Origin: Bacillota bacterium | Lineage (GTDB): Bacteria > Bacillota > Dethiobacteria > DTU022 | Direction of reading: 5' to 3' | Length of the DNA stretch: 64,000 nt | NCBI GenBank assembly: GCA_011389985.1 | Contig: JAABTH010000004.1 | Span: 65,846 to 129,845, forward strand | In this document: positions 23,883 to 62,684 of the stretch, in pieces | How positions within the stretch are numbered: position 1 is the stretch's first letter | Layout of the letters: the number at the start of each line of letters is the position of its first letter | Made by a program: the position numbers and the translations under genes | The notes under the pieces: model-generated | What the model saw: only the letters and a program-made list of their open reading frames with translations | Told to the model about the DNA's origin: nothing | Databases searched by the model: none

Positions 23883-23925
23883 CGAAAAGAGTTACTATGC
23901 AGAATATGAAAGGGGTTGATCCGCA

Positions 23926-29431: not shown

Positions 29432-29498
29432 AAAAAAACCACCATCCCTGATAATGGATTTATGACTGCCCCAATTATATCATAATCTTTTTATATAG

Positions 29499-45099: not shown

Positions 45100-46305
45100 C
45101 TATTTTATTATATCCGGTGAAGGCGCGAGTTTTTTTTCGTATAGATAATCTTCATAAATATACATAAGTTCTTTATCAAATAGAGTCCTTTTCATGTCAA
45201 CGGTAACTGTTCTGACTGCTTTAAGAAGATCGCTGGCTTCTTCATCAGAAAGATCTATGCCGTACTCCACAAATTTCAGCATTATTGATTTCGATCCGGA
45301 ATGTTTCCCTATTACGATCTGTCTTTCCAATCCTACATCTTCAGGACTGAAAACTTCATAAGTACCGGGGTATTTGATCACTCCGTCGGCATGAATACCC
45401 GATTCATGGGCAAAAGTGTTTGTACCCACAATAGGCTTACTCGGGTATAGCTGTCTACCCGAAGCCCTGGCCACGTATTCACATAAATTTCTGAAATCGC
45501 GGGTGTTAACTCCCAAATTAACACTGAATAGATGTTTCAAAGCCATTGCGACCTCTTCAAGTGCGGCGTTGCCGGCTCTTTCGCCGAGTCCGTTTACGGT
45601 AACCCCGATAAAACAGGCTCCTGCCTTTAAGCCGGCTAACGCGTTAGCAGTTGCCATTCCGAAGTCGTTGTGGGTATGCATTTCAATGTCCATTCCGGTT
45701 GCTTCAAGAAGAGAACTTATTACCTCGTAAGTTTTGAATGGCTCAAGTACGCCAATCGTATCACAGAAACGTAAACGGTTTGCTCCGGCCGCCTGAGCCT
45801 GTTTAGCGAATTCAACTAAGAAATCAAAATCGCTGCGGGAGGCATCTTCTGCATTTACTGATATATAAAGGTTGTGCTTAGCGGCGAACTCTACAGATTT
45901 AACCATGTTTTCAAGCACCCACTCACGCGAAGTTCTGAGTTTGTGTGCTATATGTATGTCAGAGGTTGAAATAGATATTGCCACGGCGTCAACACCGCAG
46001 TCTAAAGAATGCTTGATATCTTCAATATTGGCCCGGTTCCAGGCCATAATGCTGGCCTGTAGGTTGTAGGATACAATTTCTTTTATAACCTCTTTCTCAT
46101 CACCGCCCATTACCGGTATACCGGCCTCGATCTGATGAACACCGAGATTATCGAGCATTTTGGCAATGCGAAGTTTTTCTCTGTTTGAAAATACAACTCC
46201 TGCCGTTTGCTCTCCATCCCTCAGAGTTGTATCGACTAGCATAGGAATTTTTTTTTCAAGGCTTTCCTGGAATCTTTTCATGTAAGGGTCTCCTTCATTA
46301 GGCAT
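45100..46305 (-). CDS. short LeuA/NifV/AksA-family DRE-TIM synthase (homocitrate/citramalate-synthase-like), lacks the LeuA regulatory domain
   Basis: 401 aa; LRDGEQ, HTHNDFG and GERAGNAALEE motifs; no C-terminal LeuA-dimer domain. Confidence 0.7.
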   Translation of the reverse strand: MPNEGDPYMKRFQESLEKKIPMLVDTTLRDGEQTAGVVFSNREKLRIAKMLDNLGVHQIEAGIPVMGGDEKEVIKEIVSYNLQASIMAWNRANIEDIKHSLDCGVDAVAISISTSDIHIAHKLRTSREWVLENMVKSVEFAAKHNLYISVNAEDASRSDFDFLVEFAKQAQAAGANRLRFCDTIGVLEPFKTYEVISSLLEATGMDIEMHTHNDFGMATANALAGLKAGACFIGVTVNGLGERAGNAALEEVAMALKHLFSVNLGVNTRDFRNLCEYVARASGRQLYPSKPIVGTNTFAHESGIHADGVIKYPGTYEVFSPEDVGLERQIVIGKHSGSKSIMLKFVEYGIDLSDEEASDLLKAVRTVTVDMKRTLFDKELMYIYEDYLYEKKLAPSPDIIK

Positions 46306-46328: not shown

Positions 46329-47141
46329 TTAACCCAGGCGAAGTTCTTCTGAACGCCTGGTCGCTTCTCTTACAGCTTTAATCAGGCAGCTGCGAAAACC
46401 CGATTCTTCAAGAACAAGTAGGGCAGAACTGGTTGTTCCTGCCGGAGATGTAACTATATTTCGAAGTTCAGCCGGATGTTGGGCATTGGTTTCCAGCATG
46501 CGTGCAGCACCGATAACATTTTGAACTACCATTTTTGCGGCCACATCACGTCTGATACCGACGGAGACTCCTGCATCGATCATTGTTTCAATAAAGAGAT
46601 AAACATAAGCTGGTCCGGTTCCGCTTAGGCCTGTGGCTGCATCCATCAGTTTTTCCGGAAGCCTCATAGTGAGACCGATTGATTTAAGCAGATGCTCTAC
46701 TTCACGTCTTTCTTCATCGGTAACGGCATCGCCAGTGCTTAGCGCTATTGTTCCTTCGCCAATCAGGCAGGGGGTGTTCGGCATTAAACGTATAACTTTA
46801 GTACCGGATGAAAGGCAGCTTTCAATGAAACTAATAGTAATTCCCGCAGCTATTGAAATATAAACCTGGTCAGGTTGAACAAATGGTTTTATTGCATATA
46901 ACAAACCCTCCGTATCCTGAGGTTTGACCGCAATAAATATGTGTTTACAAAGAGGAATAAAGTCTGCTGGTTTATCAGCTGTGTTTGCGTTTAATTCTTC
47001 TGCAAGTTGAATCATTCTTCCTTTATCGAGATCATACAGGTAAAGCAGCGATGGTTCTATGCATCCGGCTTTAATCATTCCTTTAGCCAGGGCAGAGCCC
47101 ATGGCACCACAACCAATAATTCCAATGACATCATTATCCAT
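46329..47141 (-). CDS. proC: pyrroline-5-carboxylate reductase
   Basis: 270 aa; N-terminal Rossmann GIIGCGAMG; P5CR C-terminal dimerisation domain. Confidence 0.85.
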   Translation of the reverse strand: MDNDVIGIIGCGAMGSALAKGMIKAGCIEPSLLYLYDLDKGRMIQLAEELNANTADKPADFIPLCKHIFIAVKPQDTEGLLYAIKPFVQPDQVYISIAAGITISFIESCLSSGTKVIRLMPNTPCLIGEGTIALSTGDAVTDEERREVEHLLKSIGLTMRLPEKLMDAATGLSGTGPAYVYLFIETMIDAGVSVGIRRDVAAKMVVQNVIGAARMLETNAQHPAELRNIVTSPAGTTSSALLVLEESGFRSCLIKAVREATRRSEELRLG

Positions 47142-47279: not shown

Positions 47280-48452
47280 CTATTTGAGAGCTTCCGTGTC
47301 CGATTTATAGATATTGCGATCGCAGCGGAAACAAGCCTGGGCTTCGTCAGAGATGCAGGGGCTGCTGCTGGTAATCATAGAAGCAATATTATTTCCGATA
47401 CCCGGCCCCAGCATCAGGCCCTGGCCACACATACCAACTGCCAGAATAAGGCCTTTAAGCCCACTGGCATAATCAACAATCGGTACGCCATCAGGTGTCA
47501 TCGGGTAGCAGCCTCTCCAAATCCTTCGAATCAAGAGGTTCTTAAATTTTGGGATCAGTGCGGTCATTCTGCTCGATAAAACCGGTAGGAATTCAGATAA
47601 AGATTCCCGGTTTGTCCCGACAAATAGATCTTTTGGCGTATAACAGAATATAATTTGCCCTTTTCTGTTTTGGCCAAAGTAAAAGTTTGTAGTTTTTCCT
47701 TCAGGACCAGGACGCAGATCAACTATCAGTGGGGCTAGAAAATGCTTTATTGGCGCAGAGATTCCGGCCTCGTGAGAATCGGGAGTGACCGGTATGTCAA
47801 TGCCAAGCATGGGTCCATGTTCAGCTGCATCTGAACCGGCGGCAAGGACAACCCAGTTTGAAGAGTAAATATCTTTATCAGTTCTAACGCCGGTAATTTT
47901 ATCGCCTTCCCGCAGGTAACCGATCACTCTTTCATTAAAACGGTAAACGGCGCCGCAGTTTTCAGCCTCCCGTTGAAATGCGATTGGAGCCAGAATAGAT
48001 GAAACCTGACCATCATCAGGAGAATAGGTGCCTCCTCTTAAGCCATCAGGGTTAATTCCCGGGATAATTTCTTTGATGTCATCCGGACCGACCCAGTTAA
48101 TATTTAGTCCATATCCCTTTTGGACAGGCAACAGGCTTTTCAGTGTGGTTTCAACTATTTCATCGTAAACAGGAAAACAATACCCGCCTGGTTTCCATTC
48201 AATGTCAAAGCCGTAGATATCTTTCCAGGTGGAAAAAATTCTGATGCTTTCAAGACCGATGCTAATCTTACCGGGATCTGAGTGAGTAGCCCTTACCCCG
48301 CCTATAGCTGTTTTATTTTCACCCTGACCTGCTGCAGTACGCTTATCTAATACAAGCACTTTTAAACCTGCTTTTGCCAGGTGATAAGCGGTCGGGTTAC
48401 CCACGCTTCCACAGCCGACAACTATAACATCGTAAATATTACCTGTCGGCAT
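47280..48452 (-). CDS. FAD-dependent amine dehydrogenase of the DAO family (HcnC / sarcosine oxidase beta / D-Hyp-proline dehydrogenase beta-like)
   Basis: 390 aa; N-terminal GxGxxG (VVGCGSVGNPTA); DAO-family length and C-terminal HG(Q)G-like motif; its start overlaps the stop of the upstream 1294-aa gene. Confidence 0.75.
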   Translation of the reverse strand: MPTGNIYDVIVVGCGSVGNPTAYHLAKAGLKVLVLDKRTAAGQGENKTAIGGVRATHSDPGKISIGLESIRIFSTWKDIYGFDIEWKPGGYCFPVYDEIVETTLKSLLPVQKGYGLNINWVGPDDIKEIIPGINPDGLRGGTYSPDDGQVSSILAPIAFQREAENCGAVYRFNERVIGYLREGDKITGVRTDKDIYSSNWVVLAAGSDAAEHGPMLGIDIPVTPDSHEAGISAPIKHFLAPLIVDLRPGPEGKTTNFYFGQNRKGQIIFCYTPKDLFVGTNRESLSEFLPVLSSRMTALIPKFKNLLIRRIWRGCYPMTPDGVPIVDYASGLKGLILAVGMCGQGLMLGPGIGNNIASMITSSSPCISDEAQACFRCDRNIYKSDTEALK

Positions 48453-51400
48453 TACTCAATTCCTCCTGTATCATTGGCGATAAAATCTCCAAGGTGAACT
48501 TCAGCGACAAGCGGCCGGTGAGTCGGCATGGTCAGCTCAGATAAAGGAATACCTTCTTCTCTGTATATACGTAAAATTAAATCGGTACATGTTTTTCCGT
48601 TGCAGCCGCCCAGGCCGGTTCTTAGAAGCGCTTTCAACTGGTTTAGATCACGTACTCCATCCCGGATTGCCCTGACTATTTCACTTTTCCTGACTCGTTC
48701 GCAGCGGCAAACAATTGGATCGGCCTCTTCTGTAAGCGAGCCTTCAAGCGGCTGTCCCGGATCTATTTCCCTTATGTGGAATCCTGCTACCTTCAGTCTT
48801 TGATCGTAGGGAACTTCGAGCATGAGCAGGCGCCTGCTGTTTTGCTCTTTATGGTCTTTATAGGCGATAACCCTTCCCCTGCCTACAATATTGCCCTCCA
48901 TGTCTGTTGTGGTTACTTCCTGCCCGATTGGGATCAGGTTATTGATAAATTCAAAAGGCATCATTAGAAGTGCTTTCTCTTTTTTAGGATCGTAATCATC
49001 AAGGACAAGATTTATAGCCAAACCCGGACAGGCGAGCACACATCGGCCGCAACCAATGCATTCACCACTAAATTCCGGGAGCGATAATATGGAATCATTC
49101 ATGCTGATGCAATTCTTTGGACATGCTTCTGTGCAGGGGTTACAGGGGATTTCCTGCATGCAGCGAATTAATGGGTAAACATTATCTTCCCTATCTTCCG
49201 GAATAAAGGGGTCACTGCTAGCGGCATGCTGCTTTAGGGTTTCACCAAATTCTTCCCAGTCGCTGGGGACAGGAAGGTCAATACCCATCGACTGAGCGAT
49301 TTTGCGGCCTGTTATTTTTCCGGAAAAAATGGCAGCAGATGCTTCAGCAATCTCATTGGCGTCTCCGGCTGCGTATGCTTCTATTCCGTACTCTTTCGCT
49401 TTTTCCAAAAGTTCGTTAACCGGGCTTAAACCGACGGCAATTAAAACAGTATCAACTTCAAAAGATCTCTCGGTACCGGGAATAGTTTTAAAATTCTCAT
49501 CCAGGGCAGCGGTAATTACCCGTTCAACTTTCTCTTCTCCCTCAATCCGCAGGACTGTATGTGATGTCCAGACAGGCACCCCAAAGCGCCTGATCTTGTC
49601 CTCATGAACCTTGTAACCGCCACAGCGCGGCAGTGCTTCAACAAGTCCAACTACATCGATTCCGGCTTGCAGGGCATGATAAGCTCCGATTAAACCTACA
49701 TTACCTCCACCAACGATAAAGAGTTTTTCAGCACAACGGATTAGATCGCGGTTAACAAGGGTCTGAAAGGCTCCGGCGCCGTAAACTCCCGGCAAATCAG
49801 CACCGGGCAAGGCCAGGCTTTTTTCTCTTGCTCCGGTTGCAAATAAAACTTTATTTGCATTAACCAGGCGGTAGATACCGTTTGAGGAAACGCCAATTTT
49901 TCCGTCACTGAATACACCGATAACGCTTGAATTGAGCCAGGTATTAACAGTGGGTAGTTTTTGAAGGTCTCCGACCAGAATTTCGCCTATATGCATACCG
50001 CGGGAACCGGCGTAACAGTCAGAGACTGAACCAAAAAAATTATGGGTCTGCAGACTCAGTTTACCACCAAGCGATTGTTTGTCGTCTATTAACAAGGTAT
50101 CGACGCCCACGTTGCCGAGCTCTATTGCAGCACTTATTCCAGCAGGTCCTCCTCCTATAATTAGTACCTCTGCATTATATACAGGTGTTTCCGGAATGAC
50201 AGTTTCACTTGGCGGTATGTCCAAAAGTTCAGGCAGTCCTTCTACACTTTTTACAACCATTCCCTCTGTTACAGGGGTCATACAGCCTTTTACCGGTTTT
50301 CCGTCAGCAATAACCATGCATTGAGAGCACTGGCCGTTAACACAGTAAATGCCCTGAGCGGCGCCGTCATTTTCATGATGGCCGAAAATATGAATACCTG
50401 CAGCATATAAAGCAGATGTGATCACTTCATTTGTGCGTGCTTTTAATTCAAAATTATTGAAAGTAAAACTAATATCAGCCTTCTCCACGGGAGGTAAGAT
50501 GGGGTGATTGTTAATCCGGTAGAGATCCGGCATTTTTATAGTTTCAGCTTCAGTAATAGCTAAGTTTTCCCGATTGAACAATAGAGGTTTTGGTGATCTT
50601 GTTTTTTGCCAGGCTCCTTTGCGCATTAAAAGAGTATATTGAAGATATTCATTTACCGAAGCACAAGTTTTGGGTTGGCTCTCTTTTAACAGTTCTTCAA
50701 CCATTTTTGTGCGGCTCTGTTGATCAAGTGCAAAATGAAAATTTTCATCACCCGGCTGAGTACGACCGGCGAGCTTATTAATAGTTATTATTTCTCGGCC
50801 TGATTTTAAATCATTAATTTCTGCCAAACTGCTAACCGGGCGGACCGTAAGATTCTTCTCTTTAATTATTTTAAGGGCCGATTTAACTACAGAAACTACA
50901 GCAGATTCACCGGTAAGCATTTTGAAGAGCAGGTGAAGTTCTGGTAGATTGCCGAGGTATAGGAGATCGGTAATTTCAGCATTTTCAGTTTTAAAAAGTG
51001 AGGCCAGATCAGCCGGAAGCGCCGGTTTTGTCTCTGGTTGCATTTTAAACCAGTTAATAATATCAAGCGCCCGATCCATGCCGCTCTTATTTCCATTATC
51101 AGGGTCATAAACTGCTGATAAAACTGCCAAGTCACTTTGTTGTTTATATTCAGTCCAGGTATTATGAGGGCCTTCAGGACCTGGTTTGGGTGTCAACAGG
51201 GCTGTTATATTATGATTCAAGCCTAAATAGTCAAGCACACCCTGAACAGTTTTAACACGCTCTTCCCCGAGATCACCACCTTCTTTATAGGGGCAAGTCT
51301 GTCTGTCTCTGCACATCAGGCCTATCTTCCTTGCTCCCCGGGCCAGGCAGTAAAGAATTGTCGCAATATCAACACTGCCGATGCAGCTGACTCTGATCAG

Positions 51401-52336
51401 TTCGCTGTTACCAGCCGGAAAAGGAGAGCGTGAACAGGCAAATATTATATCTTTGTCCTGAAGGTTTTTATCAAGCAGAGTGTTTTTAAGATCAGATAGA
51501 TCTTCTGTTAATTCCTGGCTTATAGCCCCTGTGGGACATGCCCCGGCGCAAATACCGCAGCCCAGGCAGGCAGTTGGAGAGATAAATGCTATCGCTTCAG
51601 AGCCGAGTTGAATTGATGTTCTTGGTACTGAAAAGGGGCAGACTTCCTCGCATATCCCGCATCCGCGGCAAAGATCGCTGTTGACTTCACAAACAGGTAT
51701 TTGAAACTCTCGATTCCAGATAGTGAGTGTCTGGTTTTTCTGTTCCATGGGAATAGCCCCCGTGGGACAGATATAAGCACAGGCACGGCAGCCGGTACAC
51801 TCATCACCTACTCCATCAGGGTTTGGTGCTACAAGCTTATCAATCCCTCGCCCCAGGGTTGAAATAGCTCCAGGCCCGCAATCCTGGCATACCCTGATGC
51901 ATAAACCGCACAACACGCATTTATTATCTGGTTTTCCAACAATGTAAGAAGTTGTATCAATACCCTCTAAGCGGGCCATTGATTTGATTTCATCTGAGCC
52001 GGGGCACTGGGCCATGTACAGCTCCAGCAGCGCCTGTCGTGTTTTAAGGACATCTTCTGTTCTTGTATTTACAATTAGTCCGTCTTCAGCAGGATAGAGG
52101 CAGGATGTTACAATTTTTGAAGATTTATTCCAACTTTCTTTGGTGATCTCAACTACACAAAGACGGCAGGCGCCGGATGGTGCGAGTGCAGGATGATGGC
52201 ATAATGTTGGTATGTTGAGCCCAATATCCTCTAATATACCGAGCAGCATCTTTTTATTTTCGGTTTCTACCTTGCGTCCGTCAACTGTGATTATTATTTT
52301 CTTGCTCATCAATTTATGTTCACCTGTTTCTTTCAA
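48452..52336 (-). CDS. 1294-aa multi-domain Fe-S flavoprotein: NuoG/HydA-N-terminal-like [2Fe-2S] + 2x 2[4Fe-4S] + MvhD-like + HcnA/SoxA-type [2Fe-2S] + FAD/NAD(P) pyridine-nucleotide-disulfide oxidoreductase (HcnB/SoxA/HdrA-like) + ferredoxin + BFD-like [2Fe-2S]
   Basis: motifs in order: ITVDGRKVE..CHHP..GACRLCVVEI; four CxxCxxCxxxCP; IRVSCIGSVD..CRDRQTCPY; GIYCVNGQCSQCMV; IIGGGPAGISAA and IVGGGNVGLIGA; CIGCGRCVLACP; CRCERV..GGCNGKTC. Confidence 0.8.
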   Translation of the reverse strand: MKETGEHKLMSKKIIITVDGRKVETENKKMLLGILEDIGLNIPTLCHHPALAPSGACRLCVVEITKESWNKSSKIVTSCLYPAEDGLIVNTRTEDVLKTRQALLELYMAQCPGSDEIKSMARLEGIDTTSYIVGKPDNKCVLCGLCIRVCQDCGPGAISTLGRGIDKLVAPNPDGVGDECTGCRACAYICPTGAIPMEQKNQTLTIWNREFQIPVCEVNSDLCRGCGICEEVCPFSVPRTSIQLGSEAIAFISPTACLGCGICAGACPTGAISQELTEDLSDLKNTLLDKNLQDKDIIFACSRSPFPAGNSELIRVSCIGSVDIATILYCLARGARKIGLMCRDRQTCPYKEGGDLGEERVKTVQGVLDYLGLNHNITALLTPKPGPEGPHNTWTEYKQQSDLAVLSAVYDPDNGNKSGMDRALDIINWFKMQPETKPALPADLASLFKTENAEITDLLYLGNLPELHLLFKMLTGESAVVSVVKSALKIIKEKNLTVRPVSSLAEINDLKSGREIITINKLAGRTQPGDENFHFALDQQSRTKMVEELLKESQPKTCASVNEYLQYTLLMRKGAWQKTRSPKPLLFNRENLAITEAETIKMPDLYRINNHPILPPVEKADISFTFNNFELKARTNEVITSALYAAGIHIFGHHENDGAAQGIYCVNGQCSQCMVIADGKPVKGCMTPVTEGMVVKSVEGLPELLDIPPSETVIPETPVYNAEVLIIGGGPAGISAAIELGNVGVDTLLIDDKQSLGGKLSLQTHNFFGSVSDCYAGSRGMHIGEILVGDLQKLPTVNTWLNSSVIGVFSDGKIGVSSNGIYRLVNANKVLFATGAREKSLALPGADLPGVYGAGAFQTLVNRDLIRCAEKLFIVGGGNVGLIGAYHALQAGIDVVGLVEALPRCGGYKVHEDKIRRFGVPVWTSHTVLRIEGEEKVERVITAALDENFKTIPGTERSFEVDTVLIAVGLSPVNELLEKAKEYGIEAYAAGDANEIAEASAAIFSGKITGRKIAQSMGIDLPVPSDWEEFGETLKQHAASSDPFIPEDREDNVYPLIRCMQEIPCNPCTEACPKNCISMNDSILSLPEFSGECIGCGRCVLACPGLAINLVLDDYDPKKEKALLMMPFEFINNLIPIGQEVTTTDMEGNIVGRGRVIAYKDHKEQNSRRLLMLEVPYDQRLKVAGFHIREIDPGQPLEGSLTEEADPIVCRCERVRKSEIVRAIRDGVRDLNQLKALLRTGLGGCNGKTCTDLILRIYREEGIPLSELTMPTHRPLVAEVHLGDFIANDTGGIE

Positions 52337-54741
52337 CTTTCAACTTCGATAGCATCAAAATTGCAGGTTACGCGGCAGAGACCACAGCGGTTACAGAGAT
52401 CCTGGTTAATAATGTGCAGCTCTTTCTTATTACCGCTGATTGCCTTTTGCGGGCATAACCTGGCGCATCGTCGACAGCCGGTACAGCTAGCGGTGATTTT
52501 GAAGCTAATTAATTCTCTGCACACTCCGGCAGGGCATCTTTTATCATCAATATGGGCCATATATTCATTTTTAAAGTGTTTCAAAGTACTCCGCACTGGA
52601 TTGGAAGCAGATTTACCCAGGCCGCATAAAGAGCCCTGTTCAAGAAGGTCAAGAAGCTTCTCTATTCTCTCAATATCGCCGGGTACTCCTTTGCCCCGGC
52701 ATATTTTATCAAGTATATCATGAAGATTTGCCAGTCCGAGTCTGCAGGCAGCACATTTTCCACATGATTCCTGGGCAAGAAAATCTGTAAAATAACGTGC
52801 TACGTCAACCATGCAGGTATCTTCATCCATAACAATCATACCGCCGGAGCCCATCATCGAGCCTTCTAACGTGAGCGTATCAAAATCGACCGGTAGATCG
52901 AGTTTGCTCTCAGGCAAACAGCCTCCGGAAGGGCCACCGGTCTGAACTGCCTTAAAGGGTTTATTGTTCAATATACCACCGCATATATCATAGATAATTT
53001 TGCGCATGGTTATGCCCATCGGCACTTCAACCAGTCCGGTATTTTTGACCTTGCCCACTACAGAGAATACTTTAGTACCCGGACTGGTCACGGTTCCGGT
53101 GTTTGCATACCAGGCTGCTCCTTTATTTATGATAACCGGTATATTGGTAAAAGTTTCAACGTTGTTTAAAACGGTCGGTTTATTATAAAGGCCCCTTACT
53201 GCCGATCTGATATATTTTGCCCGTGGCTCTCCTACTCTGCCTTCAATCGATTGCATCAGCGCAGTAGATTCACCACAGACAAAAGCACCAGTACCCCGGT
53301 TGATTGTAACATCAAATGAAAAGTCTGTGCCGCAAATATTATTCCCCAGAATGCTGGCTTGTCTGCATTGATCAATCGCTGCCTGCAGGTGTTTTAATGC
53401 ACGGGGATATTCTTCGCGGACATAAATATAACCTTCTGATGCCCCAACTGCAAAAGCGCAGATGATCATTCCTTCCAATACCGAATACGGATCACCTTCC
53501 ATGATGCTGCGATCCATAAAAGCACCGGGATCTCCTTCGTCACCATTGCAAATGACATAGCGAATATCTGAATCAACTGAGGCGCTTGTACGCCATTTTT
53601 TCCCGGTCGGAAAGCCTCCTCCTCCCCTTCCTCGCAATCCTGACTTTTCAATTTCACGAATCACCTGGTCAGGTTGCATTGTATAAAGGGTTTTTATGAG
53701 GGCTTTAAAACCATCTTGTGCAAGATAGTCTTTGATATTAAGAGGATCGATAGCACCCACATTGCGCAGTGCGATACGCTGTTGTCCGGCAAAAAATGGT
53801 ATCTCCTCGTACTTTTCCACACTTTCAGCAGTTTCTGGATCATGGTACAGAAGTCTTTCTACGGCCTTGTTACCGATTATCGTTTCATCGATTATTTCCC
53901 TGGCATCTTCAGGATGGACATTATTATAAAAGATGTTCTGTGGTGAAATAATTACCAGGGGGCCTTTTTCACAGAAACCCTGGCAACCTACTCGTTTCAG
54001 ACCGATATTAACCGGTACCGGCAGCTCAGAAGAAGTTAGTTCCCGGCTGATCGCTTCGGCAACCTTAAGGCTGCCCTTGGCAAGGCAACCGGTTCCCGCA
54101 CAGACCAGGATCTTTTGTTTATCTGCTTTTTTTTCACTGGTTATTTGATTACTTAGTTTCTCAAATTGACTGGAGGATGAGATTCTTTCAACAAGAATCG
54201 GAGTAGTTTCTTTTAATGTTTCAGGTTCTGCCTGTTTTGTTTCTGAAGAGCGACACTTCTTAAGTTCTTTGGCCAGTTGAGAAGAAGTAACGCTGCCATG
54301 GTACACTCCATCAATTACTACTACAGGAGCCATAGCGCATGCACCAACACAGTGCACAGAATTAAGCGTCAATTCACCATCTTCTGTAGTGTCACCCGGT
54401 TTAATCCCAAGCTGATCCGATACCTGACTCATTAAAACTGAAGCGCCCCTGATGTGGCAGGCGGTGCCTTCACAAATGTCTATTTTGTGCTTACCGCTTG
54501 GTTTTAAAGAAAATGACTTATAAAAAGTTGCAACTGAATATACCTGTGATTTTGGAACCTTGAGAATTTCAGACACTCTGGAAACAGCTTCTGTCGGTAG
54601 GTATCCGAACTCAGCCTGGATATCCTGTAAAATCATTATTAATCCGGAGGCTTCGCTATTGTGGCGTTCAATAATAGAATCGAGCAGATTAGATTGGTTG
54701 CTCATTACCAGTCCTTCGTTTGATTTAGTTTTTATGACCAT
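52333..54741 (-). CDS. fused NuoE-like + thioredoxin-like FeS + NuoF (FMN/NADH) + 2[4Fe-4S] ferredoxin protein (HydB/HndC-type NAD(H)-binding bifurcation-module subunit)
   Basis: 802 aa; CEGTACH..CVGACAMAP; CAGTGC..CQGFCEKGP; GRGGGGFPTGKKW; ESCGKCAACR; CTGCRRCARLCP and CNRCGLCRVTC; 4-nt overlap with the downstream 1294-aa gene; the real start may be Met13 (near 54705), which has a better SD. Confidence 0.8.
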   Translation of the reverse strand: MVIKTKSNEGLVMSNQSNLLDSIIERHNSEASGLIMILQDIQAEFGYLPTEAVSRVSEILKVPKSQVYSVATFYKSFSLKPSGKHKIDICEGTACHIRGASVLMSQVSDQLGIKPGDTTEDGELTLNSVHCVGACAMAPVVVIDGVYHGSVTSSQLAKELKKCRSSETKQAEPETLKETTPILVERISSSSQFEKLSNQITSEKKADKQKILVCAGTGCLAKGSLKVAEAISRELTSSELPVPVNIGLKRVGCQGFCEKGPLVIISPQNIFYNNVHPEDAREIIDETIIGNKAVERLLYHDPETAESVEKYEEIPFFAGQQRIALRNVGAIDPLNIKDYLAQDGFKALIKTLYTMQPDQVIREIEKSGLRGRGGGGFPTGKKWRTSASVDSDIRYVICNGDEGDPGAFMDRSIMEGDPYSVLEGMIICAFAVGASEGYIYVREEYPRALKHLQAAIDQCRQASILGNNICGTDFSFDVTINRGTGAFVCGESTALMQSIEGRVGEPRAKYIRSAVRGLYNKPTVLNNVETFTNIPVIINKGAAWYANTGTVTSPGTKVFSVVGKVKNTGLVEVPMGITMRKIIYDICGGILNNKPFKAVQTGGPSGGCLPESKLDLPVDFDTLTLEGSMMGSGGMIVMDEDTCMVDVARYFTDFLAQESCGKCAACRLGLANLHDILDKICRGKGVPGDIERIEKLLDLLEQGSLCGLGKSASNPVRSTLKHFKNEYMAHIDDKRCPAGVCRELISFKITASCTGCRRCARLCPQKAISGNKKELHIINQDLCNRCGLCRVTCNFDAIEVES

Positions 54742-54795: not shown

Positions 54796-54825
54796 AAATT
54801 ATATCATTGAGCATTTATAAGTGTC
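54796..54825 (-). promoter_or_regulatory. proximal promoter (minus strand TTGACA-N18-TATAAT) for the NuoEF-like operon
   Basis: consensus hexamers about 55-85 nt upstream of the 52333..54741 start. Confidence 0.5.
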
Positions 54826-55214
54826 AATTAACAAAACATGAGAGAAAAAATCTAAGTATGGCATACAGAATAAAATAAAAAATGTTTAACTTCTCTTAAA
54901 AAAGTACATAATAAAACCAGGTCCCAACAGGCCTCTTAACTAACCGTCAGATCTTCTTCGCTTGCCCATCTACAGCTGAGCTTCCGCCACCGCCTTTGGA
55001 TGGCCTTCCCTCAACCTCCAGGAAGTTACTTTTAATCCGTTCTGAGAACTCCGGTAAATCCCGGCCTGGCGGCCTTTCATTATCCGGTTCTTTCAGTGAC
55101 CTGGTTATTTTAAGGATTCCCATTGTTGATTTCGGTTAAACCTTAATCAATTCAGGCTTTTCCTTTCAAACCCGGCCCGGCTTGCTATTCAGTCTCTCGG
55201 AACCTGGTAAATGT

Positions 55215-55243
55215 ATTATTGATCAAGTAATTTGATTTGTCAA
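55215..55243 (-). promoter_or_regulatory. distal promoter (minus strand TTGACA-N17-AATAAT) preceding a GC-rich ~300-nt structured segment
   Basis: consensus -35, 17-nt spacer, 5 of 6 -10 positions; 23 nt downstream of the rocD stop. Confidence 0.4.
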
Positions 55244-55265: not shown

Positions 55266-56462
55266 TTAAGACTGAGCAAATACCTGGGAGACAATATCTA
55301 TTGCCCAGTCGAGCTCATTTTTCGTTATTACAAGTGGGGGCGCGAACCTTATGACGTTATCATGTGTTTCTTTAGCCAGAATTCCCTTATCCATTAGTTT
55401 TTCACAATAAGGTCGGGCTTTTTCTTTTAATTCCATACCCACCATTAAACCCTTGCCCCTGATTTCTAAGATTACAGGATTATCAATATTCTTAAGTTTT
55501 TCCATAAAGTATCTACCAAGCTCATCTGATTTTTCAACCAGTTTTTCTTCCTCAAGAACATCGAGCGCGGTAAGTGAAACTGCACAGGCAAGTGGATTTC
55601 CGCCAAATGTAGATCCATGCGAACCGGGCTCGAATACTCCAAGAATTTCTTCTGAAGCTGTTACTGCTGAGATAGGATATACTCCGCCGCCAAGCGCTTT
55701 GCCAAGAATATAGACATCAGGTTTAACATTTTCCCAATCGCAGGCAAACATTTTTCCGGTACGTCCGAACCCGGTTTGAATTTCATCTGCCATAAAGATG
55801 ACATTGTTTTCTTTGCAAAGTTTGTAAGCTTCATTTAAGAAACCTTCGGGCGGGATAATAATTCCTCCTTCACCCTGCACAGGTTCGATTAAGAGGGCAG
55901 CGGTGTTTTCATTAATAGCCTCTCTAAGGGCATCTATGCTGCCGTACTCTATTATTTTGAATCCTGGTGTGTAGGGGCCAAAACCTGCTTTATAGGCTTC
56001 ATCGGAGCTGAATGAAATAATAGTAACAGTTCTACCGTGAAAGTTACCTTTGCAGGCAATAATTTCTGCCTTATTTTCAGGTATATTTTTAACTTTGTAT
56101 GCCCAGCGGCGTACAGCTTTAATTGCGGTTTCAACTGCCTCTGCTCCGGTATTCATCGGCAGAACCATCTCTTTGCCTGTTAATTCTGCCAGGCGGTGGC
56201 AGAATTCACCAAGCTGATCGTTATGAAAAGCCCTGGATGTAAGAGTTATTTTATCTGCCTGCGCTTTTAATGCGTCAATTATTTTTGGATGACAGTGTCC
56301 GAAATTCATTGCTGAATAAGCGCTAAGCATATCCATGTAACGTTTTCCTTCAGGATCGGTTACCCAGACACCCTCTCCTTTGGCCAGGACAACTGGCAGT
56401 GGAAGGTAGTTCCTTGCTCCATACTTTTCATTCAGCTTCATAACCTCTTTTGTGGTTTGCAT
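55266..56462 (-). CDS. rocD: ornithine--oxo-acid aminotransferase (class III PLP aminotransferase); the ORF track extends to a TTG at 56480
   Basis: about 398 aa; class-III aminotransferase motifs; ATG at 56462 has SD AAAGAGGTG at 7-nt spacing. Confidence 0.8.
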
Positions 56463-56647
56463 ACATAACACCTCTTTCAATGATGATTAACCTGTTTTAT
56501 AATTGATCCGGTAAGGCCTGGACATAAAAATATCCCGTGTTTATAGCGGGATACGCGTTTTATTCTCAGCGTAATCTGTAATTTCCAGCGGGTCATCACT
56601 TTCGAGTTCATTCATAAGTGCCTTTGCCGGCATTAGATAAACTCCTT

Positions 56648-56708: not shown

Positions 56709-56784
56709 TGGCAGGGGAGACAGGACTTGAACCCGCAGCCTGCGGTTTTGGAGACCGCTGCTCTGCCAGTTGAGCTACTCCCCT
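56709..56784 (-). tRNA. tRNA-Trp (anticodon CCA)
   Basis: minus strand reads AGGGGAGTAGCTCAACTGGCAGAGCAGCGGTCTCCAAAACCGC...TCTCCCCTGCCA; near-identical architecture to bacterial tRNA-Trp; anticodon loop CTCCAAA. Confidence 0.85.
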
Positions 56785-56844: not shown

Positions 56845-59226
56845 TTAAACCAAATCGTGAGCGGTACGTGCTATAATCTCATTTTGAAGCTGTTCGCTAA
56901 GGTTATTAAAATAGTCACTGTAACCGGCTACCCTGACAATTAAACTGCGAAATTGTTCTGGGTTTGCCTGAGCTTTTTTCAAAGTATCTGCATCAATAAC
57001 ATTAAACTGTAGATGATGACCGTCCATTCTGAAATAAGATCTGACAAGATGGACCAGATTATCCAGACCTTTTTCACCGGTGAGTACTTTCGGCGAAAAT
57101 TTAAGATTAAGTAAAGTTCCCCCCGTTGCCAGGTGATCCATTTTAGCAGCTGATTTAATCACAGCAGTCGGTCCGTTAAGGTCGTTGCCCTGAACAGGTG
57201 AAATGCCTTCAGACAGTGGCATTCCGGACAAGCGGCCATCAGGAGTAGCCCTGATTACTGAACCAAAGTATACATGAGATGTAGTGGGCAGCATGTTGAT
57301 TCTGTATGTGGCGCCACGTATACTCTTGCGTCCATCAACTAAACGGTGAAAGATTTGGAAGACATTTTGCATGATAATGTCCGCATAGTCTTCATCATTG
57401 CCGTAATGGGGAGTTTTATTAACGATGTACTGGCGCATGGCTTCTTGTCCTGAAAAGTTATTAGCTAATGCAGAAAGTAGTTCATCCCAACTGTATTTCT
57501 GCTCATCATAAATATGTTTTTTAATCGATGTTAAAGAGTCAGTAATTGACCCTATGCCTACACCCTGGATATAGTTTGTATTGTAGCGTGATCCACCGGA
57601 ATTGTAATCTTTAGCTTTATCAATGCAGTCATCGATAATTAGTGACAGAAAAGGTGCCGGCATAGAATCTGCATAAAGTTTTTCAATCAGCTGGTTACCG
57701 GCAATTTTGATCTCCAAAAAATGTTGAAGCTGAGTTTCAAAAGCATCCATCAGCTGATCAAAACTTTCAAAGTTACCCGGATCACCAGTGTCCGGCCCAA
57801 GTTTTTTACCGGTTAATGGATCACGGCCGCGGTTCATCGTTATTTCCAAAACTTTGGTCAGGTTGAAATAGCCGGTCAGGATGTAACTTTCTTTTCCGAA
57901 AGCGCCGGTTTCAACACAACCACTTATGCCGCCATTTCGCGCATCAACCAGTGACTTGCCCTGGACCAGTAATTCCTGAATTACCGCTTCTACATTAAAT
58001 ACAGAAGGTTGTCCCCAGCCTTTGCGGATTATTTCCCCTGCTTTCCTGATAAAAAGGTCCGGGCTTTTTTTACTAACCTGTATATTTGTGCTTGGCTGAA
58101 GAAGTCGCATTTCATCAATAACTTCCAACAGAAGATAGGTGAGTTCGTTAACCCCGCTATTGCCATCAGGTTTTAGCCCGCCCAGGTTAATATTTGAAAA
58201 ATCTGTATAAGTACCACTTTCCTTTAAAGTTATTCCCACTTTTGGAGGAGCAGGTTGATTATTAAATTTGATCCAGAAGCATTCAAGCAACTCTTTTGCT
58301 TTATCTTTGCATAAAGAGTTATTATTTATACCTTTGCTGTAGAACGGCCAGATATGCTGGTCAAGCCTTCCGGGGCAGAAAGCGTCCCAGGTATTTAATT
58401 CAGTTATAACCCCGAGGTGGATAAACCAGTAGTGTTGAAGAGCTTCCCACATATCACGGGGTGCATTTGCCGGAACATTATCACAAACAAAGGCAATTTT
58501 AAGCAGCTCTTCTCTTCTTCCTGTCGATTTTTCAGATTCGGCCAGCTCTCTTGCTCTGTCAGCATGCCTTTTTGCATAAGTTATTATTGAATCAGCACAT
58601 ATCGCCATCGCTTGCAGCTGTTCACTTTTAGCCAGTGCTTCTTGATCTTCTATAAAATCAATTGAATCGAGTTTGCGGGCGATTTGCTTTTTTAAATCAA
58701 GCATGCCCATATTATAGATTTTATCACCCGCTACCGTATGTCCCGGAGCACGCTGTTCCATGAATTCTGTGAAAATACCGGCTTCGTAACAGTTATGCCA
58801 ATCACTACTCATTTTACTGAAGATAATGTCCCGCATTGAACGGCCCTTCCAGTATGGGATAATCTCATTTTCCTGAGTATTCCTTACATCATCGCTTACA
58901 TCAAATGAAATCTTCTCACGTTCTGAGATTACCGAAAGATCATCGATTGTATGACAACAAAGTTCCGGATAGGTAGGAGTAGCCTGCGGTCCGGTTCCAC
59001 GTTCGCCGACAATTAATTCACCATGGTTAATGCATATAGTTTTGTTTTCCATTAGGTGTTTGAAAGTCAGAGCTCTCAGTAAAGGCATACTCACCTTGTT
59101 TGCATATTTTTTATATACTTCTGTAACTAAAAGAGCTCTTTCAATGGTGATTGAAGGCACAGTTGATTCGCTTTGGATTCGCAGATTTTGCACTCTTTCA
59201 TTTGTACCCCGTTTGATGTTATTCAT
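56845..59226 (-). CDS. glycyl radical enzyme (PFL-fold; candidate hydroxyproline dehydratase-type GRE)
   Basis: 793 aa; Cys loop GGISGCVETG; glycyl radical motif RVAGYSDYFNNLS near the C-terminus. Confidence 0.85.
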   Translation of the reverse strand: MNNIKRGTNERVQNLRIQSESTVPSITIERALLVTEVYKKYANKVSMPLLRALTFKHLMENKTICINHGELIVGERGTGPQATPTYPELCCHTIDDLSVISEREKISFDVSDDVRNTQENEIIPYWKGRSMRDIIFSKMSSDWHNCYEAGIFTEFMEQRAPGHTVAGDKIYNMGMLDLKKQIARKLDSIDFIEDQEALAKSEQLQAMAICADSIITYAKRHADRARELAESEKSTGRREELLKIAFVCDNVPANAPRDMWEALQHYWFIHLGVITELNTWDAFCPGRLDQHIWPFYSKGINNNSLCKDKAKELLECFWIKFNNQPAPPKVGITLKESGTYTDFSNINLGGLKPDGNSGVNELTYLLLEVIDEMRLLQPSTNIQVSKKSPDLFIRKAGEIIRKGWGQPSVFNVEAVIQELLVQGKSLVDARNGGISGCVETGAFGKESYILTGYFNLTKVLEITMNRGRDPLTGKKLGPDTGDPGNFESFDQLMDAFETQLQHFLEIKIAGNQLIEKLYADSMPAPFLSLIIDDCIDKAKDYNSGGSRYNTNYIQGVGIGSITDSLTSIKKHIYDEQKYSWDELLSALANNFSGQEAMRQYIVNKTPHYGNDEDYADIIMQNVFQIFHRLVDGRKSIRGATYRINMLPTTSHVYFGSVIRATPDGRLSGMPLSEGISPVQGNDLNGPTAVIKSAAKMDHLATGGTLLNLKFSPKVLTGEKGLDNLVHLVRSYFRMDGHHLQFNVIDADTLKKAQANPEQFRSLIVRVAGYSDYFNNLSEQLQNEIIARTAHDLV

Positions 59227-60266: not shown

Positions 60267-62684
60267 ATGCCTCAAATAAAACAAGAAAAAGCAGGGTTAA
60301 ATATTGATCCTGCTTACATGAAGCGGGTAACCTTTCTTAAACGCAGGGTGCTTAATACCCGGCCGGAAATGGATCTGGAAAACGCCAGGCTGCTGACAAG
60401 AGGTTTTCGGGAAGCTGAAGGTGAACCACTTGTAGTTCGTAAAGCCAAAGCTTTTCGGAAACAGTGTTATGAAAAAACAGTTAAGATCTGGGATGAAGAA
60501 CTGATTGTCGGCTGTTCAGGCAGTAAAATCAGGGCAGGTATTCTCTGCGCCGATTCCTGCTGGTCAGTTCTTGACGAAGAACTCGACACGATTAGCAGCA
60601 GAAGATATGATCCCTTTAATCTCAAGCCTGAAGACAGGCTTGCTTTTGAAGAGGAAATTCGTCCTTATTGGAAAGGACGTTCAAATTACGAGGAATGGTT
60701 GGCCCAGATTCCCGATGATACAAGGACTCTTCGCGACAATGGAGTGGTATACATTGATCGAAAGGCAGTGCGTGGCTGGGGTGAAACAACGGCCGGCTAT
60801 GAATGGCTGATAAACGAAGGCCTGGACGGAATAATAAAAACTATTGAAGATCGAAAATCAAGGCTTGATATAACAAATTCGGGAGATTACGAGAAAGACT
60901 ATTATCTCAAATCGCTTTTGATAATAGCTGACGGTATGACCAGGCTTGCCGAAAGATATGCAGAAGAAGCTGAACAGATGGCATCCCGCGAAGGTGACGA
61001 ACGGCGCAAAGGTGAACTGCTGGAAATTGCAAAAACTTGCCGTCGCGTCCCCGTAAAGCCGGCCCGCACTTTCCGCGAAGCCTTGCAGTCGCTATATTTT
61101 TACCAAACAATGATATTCATGGAGCAGAATGCTGCCAGTTATAACCCCGGCAGAATGGATCAGTATCTCTGGCCATTTTATAGGAAGGATCTTGAAGCCG
61201 GGCACATTACATCTGAACAAGCGCAGGAACTGCTCGATTGCCTCTGGGTCAAATTCAGCGAACCCTGTCTTTTCCAGGATGCTCAGACAGCAGAATTTGC
61301 AGCCGGTTATCCTATGTTTCAAAATGTATGTGTAGGAGGTGTTGACGATACCGGTAAAAATGCTGTTAATGATCTGTCCTACATGATTCTTCAGGCGACC
61401 ATGGATGTCCGATTATACCAACCTTCACTTTCGGTACGTTATAGTGTTTCGAAAAACCCTAATTCTTTTTTGCGTAAGGTAGTGGAGCTGATCAGGTTGG
61501 GAACAGGATTTCCCGCTTTTCACAACGACGATATCGGCACTACAATGCTTATGAACAAAGGCGTGCCACTGAAGGAGGCATACAACTGGAATCCCTGTGG
61601 TTGTGTTGAGACAAATCTGGAAGGTCGGATGCGTCAGTACACCGCCCTGGCTGATATTAACCTTGGCAGTATGGTTGAATTCGCCCTGCTTAACGGGATG
61701 AACAGAAAAAGCGGCTTAACCATATCTGTAAAAACCGGGGAGCCAACGGAATTCGATTCCTATGATCAGTTCCTGGATGCTGTTAAAAAACATTTAGCAT
61801 ATGCAACAAGAGCTGTCGTAGCCGGAAGTCACATTATCGATGAGATCGGTTTGAACAGACCTGTTCCTGCTCTTTCTCTTACTTTCAAAGAATGTATAGA
61901 TAATGCAAAAGATTATGCCTGGGGTGGCGCTAAATATAACGTAGGTAATGGTATTATTCTGATTGGAGTAGCCGACTTGATCAATAGTATTGCAGCTGTT
62001 AAATATCTTGTATTTGATACCGGAAAAATCACAATGAAGAAGCTTATAGAAGCTCTTGATCAAGATTTTAAAGGTTTCGAAGATATTCGTAAGCTTTGTC
62101 TTGAGGCTCCCAAATACGGTAATGATGATCCTTATGCCGATGAAATTGCAGGAGAGGTATTTACTTATATTGCAGATGAAATTGAACGTTATAAAAGCAA
62201 ATATGGAACTATGACACCCGGCATTCTACCTGTTTCAGGAAATACACCTTTCGGCCTCGAAGTAGGAGCTCTGCCGTCGGGACGAAAAGCCTGGCAGCCA
62301 CTGGCTGATGGAGTTAGTCCCAGTGGAGGAACTGATTTAAACGGACCAAGTGCAGTAATAAAATCAGTTGCCCATATTCCACATGGCCGGTTTGTTCAGG
62401 GCACCCTGCTCAACATGAAGATTGAACCCGCTATGCTCAATTCGGAAAACGGTATAACCCAGCTTATGGCGCTGTTAAAAAGTTTATGCAGTCTTGGTAT
62501 CTTCCATGTCCAGTTCAATGTCATAGACCAGGAAACTCTGATCAAGGCACAACAGGATCCTGATAATTATAAAGGATTGCTTGTAAGGGTGGCCGGCTAT
62601 ACAGCCTATTTTGTTGAGCTTGGTAAAGATGTTCAGGATGAAATCATCGGACGCACGGTCCAGCACGGTATTTCGCTGGGATGA
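60267..62684 (+). CDS. glycyl radical enzyme, second paralogue (substrate unknown)
   Basis: 805 aa; Cys loop NPCGCVETN; glycyl radical motif RVAGYTAYFVELG. Confidence 0.85.
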   Translation: MPQIKQEKAGLNIDPAYMKRVTFLKRRVLNTRPEMDLENARLLTRGFREAEGEPLVVRKAKAFRKQCYEKTVKIWDEELIVGCSGSKIRAGILCADSCWSVLDEELDTISSRRYDPFNLKPEDRLAFEEEIRPYWKGRSNYEEWLAQIPDDTRTLRDNGVVYIDRKAVRGWGETTAGYEWLINEGLDGIIKTIEDRKSRLDITNSGDYEKDYYLKSLLIIADGMTRLAERYAEEAEQMASREGDERRKGELLEIAKTCRRVPVKPARTFREALQSLYFYQTMIFMEQNAASYNPGRMDQYLWPFYRKDLEAGHITSEQAQELLDCLWVKFSEPCLFQDAQTAEFAAGYPMFQNVCVGGVDDTGKNAVNDLSYMILQATMDVRLYQPSLSVRYSVSKNPNSFLRKVVELIRLGTGFPAFHNDDIGTTMLMNKGVPLKEAYNWNPCGCVETNLEGRMRQYTALADINLGSMVEFALLNGMNRKSGLTISVKTGEPTEFDSYDQFLDAVKKHLAYATRAVVAGSHIIDEIGLNRPVPALSLTFKECIDNAKDYAWGGAKYNVGNGIILIGVADLINSIAAVKYLVFDTGKITMKKLIEALDQDFKGFEDIRKLCLEAPKYGNDDPYADEIAGEVFTYIADEIERYKSKYGTMTPGILPVSGNTPFGLEVGALPSGRKAWQPLADGVSPSGGTDLNGPSAVIKSVAHIPHGRFVQGTLLNMKIEPAMLNSENGITQLMALLKSLCSLGIFHVQFNVIDQETLIKAQQDPDNYKGLLVRVAGYTAYFVELGKDVQDEIIGRTVQHGISLG

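Follow-up and report, generated by a model that had tools for sequence, protein, structure and literature searches.

A conserved three-gene operon joining a Bfu-type NAD(H)/ferredoxin core to a proline dehydrogenase-like flavoenzyme: the candidate 'Pdh-Bfu' type

Which enzyme is encoded where a complete NAD(H)/ferredoxin core of the electron-bifurcating Bfu family stands in one operon with an amino-acid flavoprotein, and what chemistry could such an assembly carry out? The question is raised by three genes on the minus strand (54741-47280) of a 64,000-nt stretch of the Bacillota contig JAABTH010000004.1, which was analyzed as a whole and is referred to as the window. The first-pass annotation of this DNA had described the trio as an amine dehydrogenase of the HcnABC/SoxAB/PDH (proline dehydrogenase) type joined to a HydABC-like NADH/ferredoxin module. 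Domains were called by Pfam and NCBIfam profile scans of the window proteins, and for all three proteins every domain listed in that annotation was found, in the order given. The parts of the operon are as follows.

52333-54741, minus strand: BfuC fused to BfuB (HydC-HydB type, BfuCB below), 802 aa as a mechanical open reading frame (ORF), with Pfam, NCBIfam and Protein Data Bank (PDB) matches.
48452-52336, minus strand: the large fusion protein, 1294 aa as a mechanical ORF.
51722-52309, minus strand: BfuA-like N-terminal module of the large protein, residues 10-205, with PDB sequence and Foldseek matches.
51197-51709, minus strand: 2x[4Fe-4S] ferredoxin and MvhD/FlpD-like [2Fe-2S] domain of the large protein, residues 210-380.
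50507-51184, minus strand: folded alpha/beta scaffold domain of the large protein, residues ~385-610.
48452-50479, minus strand: module of the large protein that resembles PDH alpha, the SoxA N-terminus and HcnAB, residues 620-1294.
47280-48452, minus strand: DAO-family FAD subunit, 390 aa, equivalent to L-proline dehydrogenase beta (DAO profile, 176 bits).
54798-54827, minus strand: operon promoter of the sigma-70 type, TTGACA, an 18-nt spacer and a TG-extended TATAAT, with 12/12 consensus matches.

From its N-terminus, BfuCB contains a NuoE-like [2Fe-2S] domain, a thioredoxin-like [2Fe-2S] domain, the FMN/NAD(H) site GRGGGGFPTGKKW, an SLBB domain, the B1 [4Fe-4S] site, a CPAGVC site and a C-terminal 2x[4Fe-4S] domain. 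The 2Fe-2S_thioredx profile (PF01257) matches in two stretches with 204 bits, and the NuoE-like part (residues 21-163) carries a C-x4-C...C-x3-C motif. Complex1_51K (PF01512) and NADH_4Fe-4S (PF10589) follow with 154 and 99 bits, the Fer4 dicluster covers residues 751-799, and the Pfam SLBB match is borderline at 26.8 bits against a cutoff of 27. The best match in the PDB is HydB of Thermoanaerobacter kivui (8a6t_B, 745 bits); other top matches are WorB (9mqx_B), HydB of A. woodii (7q4v_B), NiFe-HydB (7t2r_B) and NfnB (9n5u_B), so that the top solved relatives are, without exception, experimentally bifurcating enzymes. In end-to-end alignments with 8a6t_B and 9mqx_B every cysteine motif is matched: the N-terminal [2Fe-2S] cysteines, ESCGKC...C, KRCPAGVC and both C-terminal CxxCxxCxxxC motifs, together with the FMN loop. 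It is this correspondence with a bifurcating HydB that bears out the annotation of a HydBC/Bfu-type core. All the extra features that mark the bifurcating type of BfuB (the N-terminal thioredoxin-like [2Fe-2S] domain, the C-terminal 2x[4Fe-4S] domain and the B2/Zn site) are present, and BfuB, BfuC and BfuA are all recognized under the domain definitions of the family (PMC9304861).

The large protein begins with a Fer2/Fer2_4 match and then four CxxCxxCxxxC(P) Fer4 motifs in Pfam. Its BfuA-like module contains the A1 [2Fe-2S] motif (C46, C57, C60 and C79) and two [4Fe-4S] motifs, whose cysteines are unchanged throughout an alignment of the protein with its homologues (15 sequences). The best PDB sequence match to residues 14-218 is WorA of A. 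mobile (9mqx_A, E 4e-40), which is also the top Foldseek match to this part (E 3e-17). The His-ligated A3 motif is missing, as in WorA, a short type of BfuA with the A1, A2 and A4 clusters but not A3 (PMC12318220). A Foldseek search with the whole N-terminal half was dominated by this domain and gave nothing informative on the other parts. In the adjoining segment, FlpD/MvhD matches residues 310-377 (Pfam, E 4.7e-10) and positions 571-742 of the NCBIfam HdrA2 profile match residues 215-376, the ferredoxin and MvhD pair being ordered as in the C-terminus of HdrA2. Its cysteines C223/226/229/233, C257/260/263/267 and C301/318/342/348 are invariant in the same alignment. The scaffold domain, which the annotation had missed, has low sequence conservation and no conserved cysteines, and this stretch of ~230 residues has no family match in the Pfam and NCBIfam scans.

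The C-terminal module is made up of Fer2_4 (residues 620-698), Pyr_redox_2 (723-982), Fer4 (1066-1108) and Fer2_BFD (1208-1257). It has a GGGPAG site for FAD, a second nucleotide site (GGGNVG...E900), a 2x[4Fe-4S] domain and a BFD-like [2Fe-2S] domain, and shows long unchanged stretches in the alignment. The [2Fe-2S] motif C665-x4-C670-x2-C673-x11-C685 is invariant in all 15 sequences. Its PDB matches are about equal between SoxA (2gag_A, E 7e-17) and the alpha subunit of Pyrococcus horikoshii PDH (1y56_A, E 1.3e-16). In the hetero-oligomeric dehydrogenases of the DAO superfamily (those for L-proline, D-hydroxyproline and opines, and HCN synthase), the alpha subunit is characterized by a GxGxxG FAD site and C-x-C-x15-20-C-x4-C, and the gamma subunit or the alpha N-terminus by C-x4-C-x2-C-x11-12-C (PMC4575208). 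The BFD-like motif here, C1210-x-C1212-x32-C1245-x4-C1250, has a longer spacer than the family's x15-20 (Fer2_BFD, 34.9 bits). The FAD domain had been called HdrA-like, a label that the profiles do not support: the HdrA and HdrA2 profiles match only the ferredoxin and MvhD part (residues ~210-376), and residues 720-1000 match SoxA/PDH-alpha and TrxR-type profiles. A bifurcating FAD domain of the HdrA type, with its inserted ferredoxin, is likewise unsupported. We also considered a sarcosine oxidase or N-demethylase, and rejected it because the folate-binding (GCV_T) half and soxD or soxG neighbours are absent; only positions 169-430 of the 996 in the SoxA profile TIGR01372 match, with 113 bits against a cutoff of 1164.

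The third protein carries an N-terminal VVGCGSVG (GxGxxG) motif and the Arg-x-Trp FMN motif (RRIWRG), which, together with the DAO fold, are diagnostic of the beta subunit (PMC4575208). Its best PDB match is PDH1 beta of P. horikoshii (1y56_B, E 3.6e-46, over the full length), with SoxB at 5e-22. The DAO profile score, the family motifs and the PDH and SoxA structure matches agree with the amine dehydrogenase of the annotation, and leave the FAD subunit within the DAO family.

The genes lie on the same strand with close spacing behind a promoter whose two hexamers are unchanged across all 11 related loci that we aligned, and the triad co-occurs across phyla, which argues that the trio is one unit, as had been proposed. 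Two translational overlaps had been proposed as well. The 1-nt overlap (TAATG) that joins the large gene to the DAO gene is present, whereas the 4-nt overlap is really a 23-nt spacer between the BfuCB stop and the start of the large gene, because 14/14 homologues begin at the codon-10 ATG (MSKK, window position 52309), which has an AGGTG ribosome-binding site. Counted from this predicted start the protein has 1285 aa, against 1294 aa for the ORF. BfuCB probably starts at Met13 (54705), with a GAAGGA ribosome-binding site, and its 802-aa form is absent from the protein collection searched.

To see how widely this arrangement is shared, we scanned one genome per species and found relatives of the large protein in 268 genomes; the locus counts given here refer to the best 80 of these 268 relatives, all of them metagenome-assembled genomes (MAGs). 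They span at least eight phyla, with loci from Bacillota, Fibrobacterota, Phycisphaerales/Planctomycetales, Myxococcota/'Deltaproteobacteria', Bacteroidales, Acidobacteriota, Chitinivibrionales and others. Many of the Bacillota loci are labelled 'Syntrophomonadaceae' and come from soda-lake sediments, and the closest relatives are labelled Dethiobacteria. The DAO gene directly follows the large gene in 75 of the 80 loci (56-91% identity), and BfuCB lies directly upstream in 54 of the 59 loci where this could be judged. All-against-all clustering of the flanking ORFs revealed no neighbour beyond the triad that is conserved across phyla. The Bfu wire and PDH alpha share a single polypeptide in Bacillota, Acidobacteriota, Chitinivibrionales and Bacteroidales; in Fibrobacterota, Phycisphaerales and Myxococcota the protein is encoded by two adjacent genes, cut between the scaffold and the Fer2_4 domain. 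Over 99% of its length, the 1294-aa protein is matched by about 92 protein clusters (built at 90% identity), which are 52-78% identical to it. Given these full-length clusters and a natural split at one fixed junction, the ORF is a genuine conserved fusion, and a frameshifted concatenation of separate genes was discarded as its origin. Public records give the proteins only generic labels ('2Fe-2S iron-sulfur cluster-binding protein', 'FAD-binding oxidoreductase', 'sarcosine oxidase subunit alpha'). The same parts occur with other wiring in an unclassified MAG (locus L079, 5110-13932), in the order BfuB, BfuC, a short BfuA, a 764-aa GltD/HdrA-like flavoprotein with ferredoxin and MvhD parts, a 400-aa HdrB-like CCG protein and a PDH-alpha-like protein, which suggests an evolutionary link of Hdr-type modules to the scaffold/MvhD part of the fusion.

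We then asked which substrate the flavoprotein part is likely to recognize. On the evidence of sequence comparison, L-proline/P5C (1-pyrroline-5-carboxylate) is most likely the couple, because the beta subunit of a proline dehydrogenase is the best PDB match and because genes of the proline node have been recruited next to the operon independently in different phyla; the family motifs and the lack of the folate-binding SoxA C-terminus lend further support. A Chitinivibrionales operon is flanked by genes for a GntR regulator and for a bona fide PutP Na+/proline symporter, the latter scoring above cutoff at 642 bits. Another Bacillota MAG has a PutP-like symporter, an agmatinase-family gene and a second PDH-like set nearby, and a Bacteroidales MAG has an ornithine aminotransferase. 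A P5C dehydrogenase lies upstream in three Bacillota loci (TIGR01237 type) and in one delta/myxobacterial locus (TIGR01236 type). These separate lineages strengthen the case for proline/P5C, one of the couples named in the annotation.

The window itself has its own set of neighbours, and those that the annotation had pointed out were all found:

46329-47141, minus strand: proC, P5C reductase (TIGR00112, 273 bits), 138 nt downstream of the operon.
55266-56480: rocD, converting ornithine to glutamate semialdehyde/P5C.
56845-59226: HypD (1347 bits, cutoff 1100), converting trans-4-hydroxyproline to P5C; its activase is also present.
60267-62684, plus strand: a second glycyl-radical enzyme.
62681-63643, plus strand: the activase of the second glycyl-radical enzyme.
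63636-63998, minus strand: proline-racemase-family ORF (Pfam, E 2e-36), running off the window end, with the C-terminal 120 residues inside.

The second glycyl-radical enzyme falls below the equivalog cutoffs of all named families, among them CutC (696/1050), HypD (635/1100) and sulfopropanediol dehydratase (627/1000), and is 77-86% identical in 7 related loci. The racemase-family ORF has Thr at the position of the second catalytic Cys of racemases and epimerases (DRSPTGTG), a pattern typical of trans-3-hydroxy-L-proline dehydratases. The product of such dehydratases, 1-pyrroline-2-carboxylate (Pyr2C), needs reduction to proline, and no recognizable Pyr2C reductase is found within the window. 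A terminator scan located the first convincing terminator past proC at 45078-45051, and proC may be co-transcribed with the operon. A NifV-type homocitrate synthase gene (45100-46305, minus strand; 518 bits, cutoff 463) begins 23 nt after proC and is unusually conserved, with 84-91% identity in 9 related loci; since the terminator comes only after it, this gene may be co-transcribed with proC and perhaps with the operon. On their own the neighbours in the window are weak functional evidence, because ProC, RocD and HypD co-occur with the operon almost only in close Bacillota relatives that share mutS/miaB synteny. proC accompanies the operon in only 13 of the 80 loci, all Bacillota (12 closely related ones and L014). 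The exceptions beyond the close relatives are rocD in a Bacteroidales locus (L040) and the proC-like gene in L014.

From the anatomy, the conservation of the triad, the fused and split forms and the gene neighbourhoods observed above, we infer a substrate, a net reaction and a favoured direction, with two candidates for the bifurcating flavin. The three genes would encode one soluble multi-cofactor complex that couples L-proline/P5C to both NAD(H) and ferredoxin, a reading to which we assign a probability of about 0.5. Binding motifs are present for NAD(H) and FMN, for two or more FADs and for as many as ~14 Fe-S clusters, in proteins linked covalently or by the operon. The Bfu core, BfuC fused to BfuB, would carry FMN, bind NAD(H) and interact with ferredoxin (Fd). 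A covalent Fe-S wire would run from the WorA-type BfuA (A1, A2 and A4) through the 2x[4Fe-4S] ferredoxin and the MvhD-like [2Fe-2S] domain to the cofactor-less scaffold. Beyond it would stand a unit of the archaeal PDH type, the alpha-like part contributing a [2Fe-2S] cluster, FAD, a nucleotide site, 2x[4Fe-4S] and the BFD-like [2Fe-2S] cluster, and the DAO-type beta contributing FAD, with FMN probably at the alpha/beta interface. Electrons would be split or merged either at the FMN and clusters of BfuB or at the FAD of alpha, the latter fed via the MvhD-like cluster as in Mvh-Hdr.

Energetics narrow the choice of net reaction. Taking established redox potentials, the P5C/proline couple lies at about -0.12 V and NAD+/NADH at -0.32 V, so proline is unable to reduce NAD+ unaided (about +38 kJ/mol) and classical Bfu in the oxidative direction is impossible. 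With proline oxidation, the classical stoichiometry, in which two substrate molecules yield NADH and 2 Fd(red), would require about +100 kJ; run reductively it would dissipate about 100 kJ. The only near-equilibrium option, and at about even odds the most likely net chemistry, would be the following:

Pro + 2 NAD+ + Fd(red, 2 e-) <-> P5C + 2 NADH + Fd(ox)

In the oxidative mode the complex would be a proline dehydrogenase independent of a respiratory chain that passes P5C on to P5C dehydrogenase, and in the reductive mode an energy-conserving P5C reductase. Across the family we consider oxidation the likelier direction, because the PutP, P5C dehydrogenase and GntR contexts elsewhere point to imino-acid catabolism. 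In the organism of the window the reductive direction is plausible, since enzymes that produce P5C or Pyr2C are clustered here and neither P5C dehydrogenase nor PutP lies in the window. The annotation had preferred the reductive reaction (2 NADH + Fd(ox) + imine -> 2 NAD+ + Fd(red) + amine), as an energy-conserving Stickland-type branch, on purely thermodynamic grounds. That scheme may hold, but bifurcation from NADH is foreign to the known Bfu enzymes, ProC next to the operon already supplies a P5C reductase, and the catabolic contexts elsewhere favour NAD-dependent proline oxidation assisted by ferredoxin at least as strongly. Only tentatively do we propose that the complex opens a new Bfu branch, with a HydBC-type core serving a high-potential organic couple and NAD(H) as the middle partner.

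Several observations weigh against the near-equilibrium coupling of proline/P5C to NAD(H) and ferredoxin. All characterized Bfu enzymes take a mid-potential third substrate (H2, formate, NADPH or aldehyde) and bifurcate to NAD+ and Fd (PMC9304861, PMC12318220), and NAD(H) as the mid-potential partner is without precedent on the Bfu chassis. Five loci have the BfuA-like half with no BfuCB within at least 3 kb upstream, and at least three have the alpha and beta genes alone, so that the catalytic module need not be accompanied by the Bfu core. The system is modular, [alpha+beta] +/- [BfuA-Fd-MvhD-scaffold] +/- [BfuCB], and the window holds the fully fused form. In the window a conventional P5C reductase gene, proC, stands directly downstream, and tblastn detected no remnant of P5C dehydrogenase or PutP there. 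As to the substrate, the beta subunit of an opine (octopine) dehydrogenase groups with archaeal L-ProDH (L-proline dehydrogenase) and is inactive on proline, so likeness to L-ProDH is no guarantee of proline specificity (PMC4575208). A Bfu-less fused member (locus L036, 5786-7318) has an L-piperidine-6-carboxylate (P6C) dehydrogenase upstream (741 bits, cutoff 730), a neighbour which hints that some family members are pipecolate dehydrogenases.

Among the alternatives, classical Bfu confurcation could serve as an electron sink: NADH + 2 Fd(red) + 2 P5C (or Pyr2C) -> NAD+ + 2 Fd(ox) + 2 proline. Such a reaction would be irreversible and strongly exergonic and would conserve no energy at this step, with P5C from HypD, RocD or the 3-hydroxyproline dehydratase-like enzyme as the terminal acceptor. 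It is the sole stoichiometry that demands no new chemistry of the BfuBC core, the window is rich in enzymes making P5C or Pyr2C, and the same logic has been predicted for Rub-Bfu (H2O2) and Nuo-Bfu (menaquinone), whose third substrates are likewise of high potential (Schut et al., PMC9304861). The enzyme would nevertheless waste ~100 kJ per turnover on a job that ProC already does with NAD(P)H, and a pure sink is incompatible with the catabolic settings of the other lineages, where PutP, P5C dehydrogenase and GntR are the neighbours; we regard it as unlikely.

The same architecture could also act in this organism on a different amine/imine couple, such as D-proline/Pyr2C, a hydroxyproline-derived imine, pipecolate/P6C, sarcosine or another N-methyl amino acid, glycine (as in HCN synthase), an opine or a D-amino acid. 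Function varies readily within the DAO superfamily, as the octopine dehydrogenase just mentioned illustrates, L036 has a P6C dehydrogenase as its neighbour, and the window combines a racemase homologue of the 3-hydroxyproline dehydratase type and a glycyl-radical enzyme outside the named families with the lack of a recognizable Pyr2C reductase. The closest structural relative is nevertheless, by a wide margin, the beta subunit of L-proline dehydrogenase, a folate-binding domain for N-demethylation is lacking, the recurrent neighbours are all genes of the proline/P5C node, and the 56-91% identity of beta across phyla argues for one common substrate. We consider a different couple improbable here. 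Least of all do we expect the Bfu-like parts to be a mere NADH-input wire, a non-bifurcating NuoEFG-like diaphorase in an enzyme uncoupled from ferredoxin, either a simple P5C reductase that uses NADH or a proline dehydrogenase that does without NAD: NuoEF-type modules do occur in non-bifurcating enzymes (PMC9304861) and some family members have no adjacent BfuCB, but BfuB here retains all features of the bifurcating type (thioredoxin-like [2Fe-2S], C-terminal 2x[4Fe-4S] and CPAGVC), its best matches all bifurcate, and ~14 metal clusters would be needless for plain NADH:P5C reduction.

Coupling of L-proline/P5C to NAD(H) and ferredoxin, if true, would provide a quinone- and O2-independent proline dehydrogenase (pipecolate dehydrogenase in some members) for strict anaerobes of at least eight phyla. 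Canonical proline dehydrogenases, PutA/PutB, hand their electrons to quinone, and we know of no enzyme assigned to proline oxidation or energy-conserving P5C reduction in fermentative anaerobes besides D-proline reductase. The complex may be the means by which many uncultured anaerobes process proline in the absence of a respiratory chain. Such coupling would also mean that a Bfu core is capable of bifurcating or confurcating in the manner of Etf, for which current Bfu mechanisms make no provision. The mechanism of Bfu bifurcation is still disputed, and a third substrate ~200 mV above NAD(H) offers a sharp mechanistic test, as either ~100 kJ is wasted per turnover or the core bifurcates from NADH. 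Meanwhile, the generic labels hide from metabolic reconstructions any role in the turnover of collagen, hydroxyproline, arginine and osmolytes in anoxic sediments.

Upstream of the operon, a 524-nt gap holds a separate gene for a structured RNA and is not a leader. This gene of ~296 nt (about 54913-55208, minus strand) lies between rocD and the operon promoter, and has its own invariant promoter at 55215-55243 (TTGACA-17-CAATAAT). Thirteen helices are predicted, among them a 16-bp closing helix between the 5' and 3' ends, with a U-run behind it. Across 11 loci, compensatory changes occur in 28 of the 74 predicted pairs, and none of 500 shuffles reaches the observed values; 95% of the alignment cells are paired, compared with 26-48% in register-shifted controls, and the indels are not multiples of three. 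An Rfam 15 scan of the gap, for a riboswitch or T-box, gave no match even at E <= 10, and a leader of either kind was set aside in favour of the independent gene. By blastn, the RNA gene recurs upstream of BfuCB in 16 related Dethiobacteria-like Bacillota loci, also behind a different preceding gene; it may be linked to the operon or independent of it. A tRNA-Trp (CCA) gene at 56709-56784 (minus strand), between hypD and rocD, has a promoter-like site and a strong terminator (56700-56664). In L014 the same tRNA-Trp precedes the RNA gene and the operon, and rocD is absent.

Elsewhere in the window, 23021-25056 on the plus strand encodes three subunits of a Na+-translocating decarboxylase, namely gamma, the biotin carrier and beta (TIGR01109, 521 bits). 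Glutaconyl-CoA, methylmalonyl-CoA and oxaloacetate decarboxylase are the candidates, and such an enzyme suits a fermenter whose energy metabolism runs on sodium. A tyrosine recombinase ORF (30712-31710, minus strand) aligns with the Xer/integrase profiles only in their C-terminal catalytic part and is followed by two ORFs without a family match (28115-30425); this stretch may be a small mobile or degraded element in an otherwise housekeeping region.

How does this system compare with known ones? The annotation had presented the combination as undescribed, and we likewise found no account in the open-access literature of a Bfu, HydBC or NuoEF module joined to an enzyme of the proline dehydrogenase type. 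The 2022 Bfu classification lists H2, formate, NADPH, F420, aldehydes, CO, pyruvate, aryl-CoA, H2O2 and quinone as third substrates and leaves 17 clades unassigned; an amine, proline or sarcosine type is absent from its text and supplement (PMC9304861), and the present type was not found in the later structural papers searched either. With WorABCSL of Acetomicrobium mobile (9mqx) and HydABC of T. kivui (8a6t), the operon shares a complete BfuB and BfuC, and it resembles WorA in its short BfuA with A1, A2 and A4 but no A3, and in having a modular third-substrate unit joined via BfuA. In contrast to these enzymes, that unit is here an amino-acid flavoprotein of the DAO/PDH type with a proposed high-potential couple, BfuC is fused to BfuB, and BfuA is fused to ferredoxin/MvhD, the scaffold and PDH alpha.

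The archaeal dye-linked L-proline dehydrogenases PDH1/PDH2 (P. horikoshii, 1y56; Thermococcus profundus) have a similar DAO-type beta that aligns over its full length, an alpha in which an N-terminal Cys4 domain is combined with a Rossmann domain for nucleotide binding, the Arg-x-Trp FMN motif and a ferredoxin-like Fe-S part. Identity to them is only about one-third, the archaeal enzymes lack a NuoEF/Bfu partner, and alpha is here the C-terminal half of a ~1290-aa fusion. HcnABC, LhpBEF (D-hydroxyproline dehydrogenase) and OdhABC (flavin opine dehydrogenase) follow the same logic of Fer2_4, a Pyr_redox_2-BFD alpha and a DAO beta, with FAD, FMN and [2Fe-2S]; they are dye-, quinone- or O2-linked enzymes from aerobes without a NAD(H)/ferredoxin module, and the beta subunit described here is nearer to L-ProDH.

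Bam-Bfu (BamBCDEFGHI) and the HdrA2-MvhD fusions likewise combine a Bfu core with Hdr-type parts, including ferredoxin and MvhD as in the HdrA2 C-terminus, and the scaffold domain is weakly like the HdrB/CCG fold but without the CCG cysteines; unlike in those systems, an HdrA FAD domain and a tungsten or benzoyl-CoA module are absent here. Ldh-EtfAB of Acetobacterium woodii, Bcd-EtfAB and CarCDE offer a functional analogy only, as they reversibly connect a high-potential couple with 2 NAD(H) and ferredoxin. Etf complexes allow the NAD+-dependent oxidation of a 'too positive' substrate at the cost of reduced ferredoxin; they are unrelated proteins in which bifurcation takes place at the Etf beta-FAD. 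Since the modularity of Bfu enzymes is established and the authors of the classification expect further third substrates, we regard 'Pdh-Bfu' as a new functional type within the known Bfu family, not a categorically new system.

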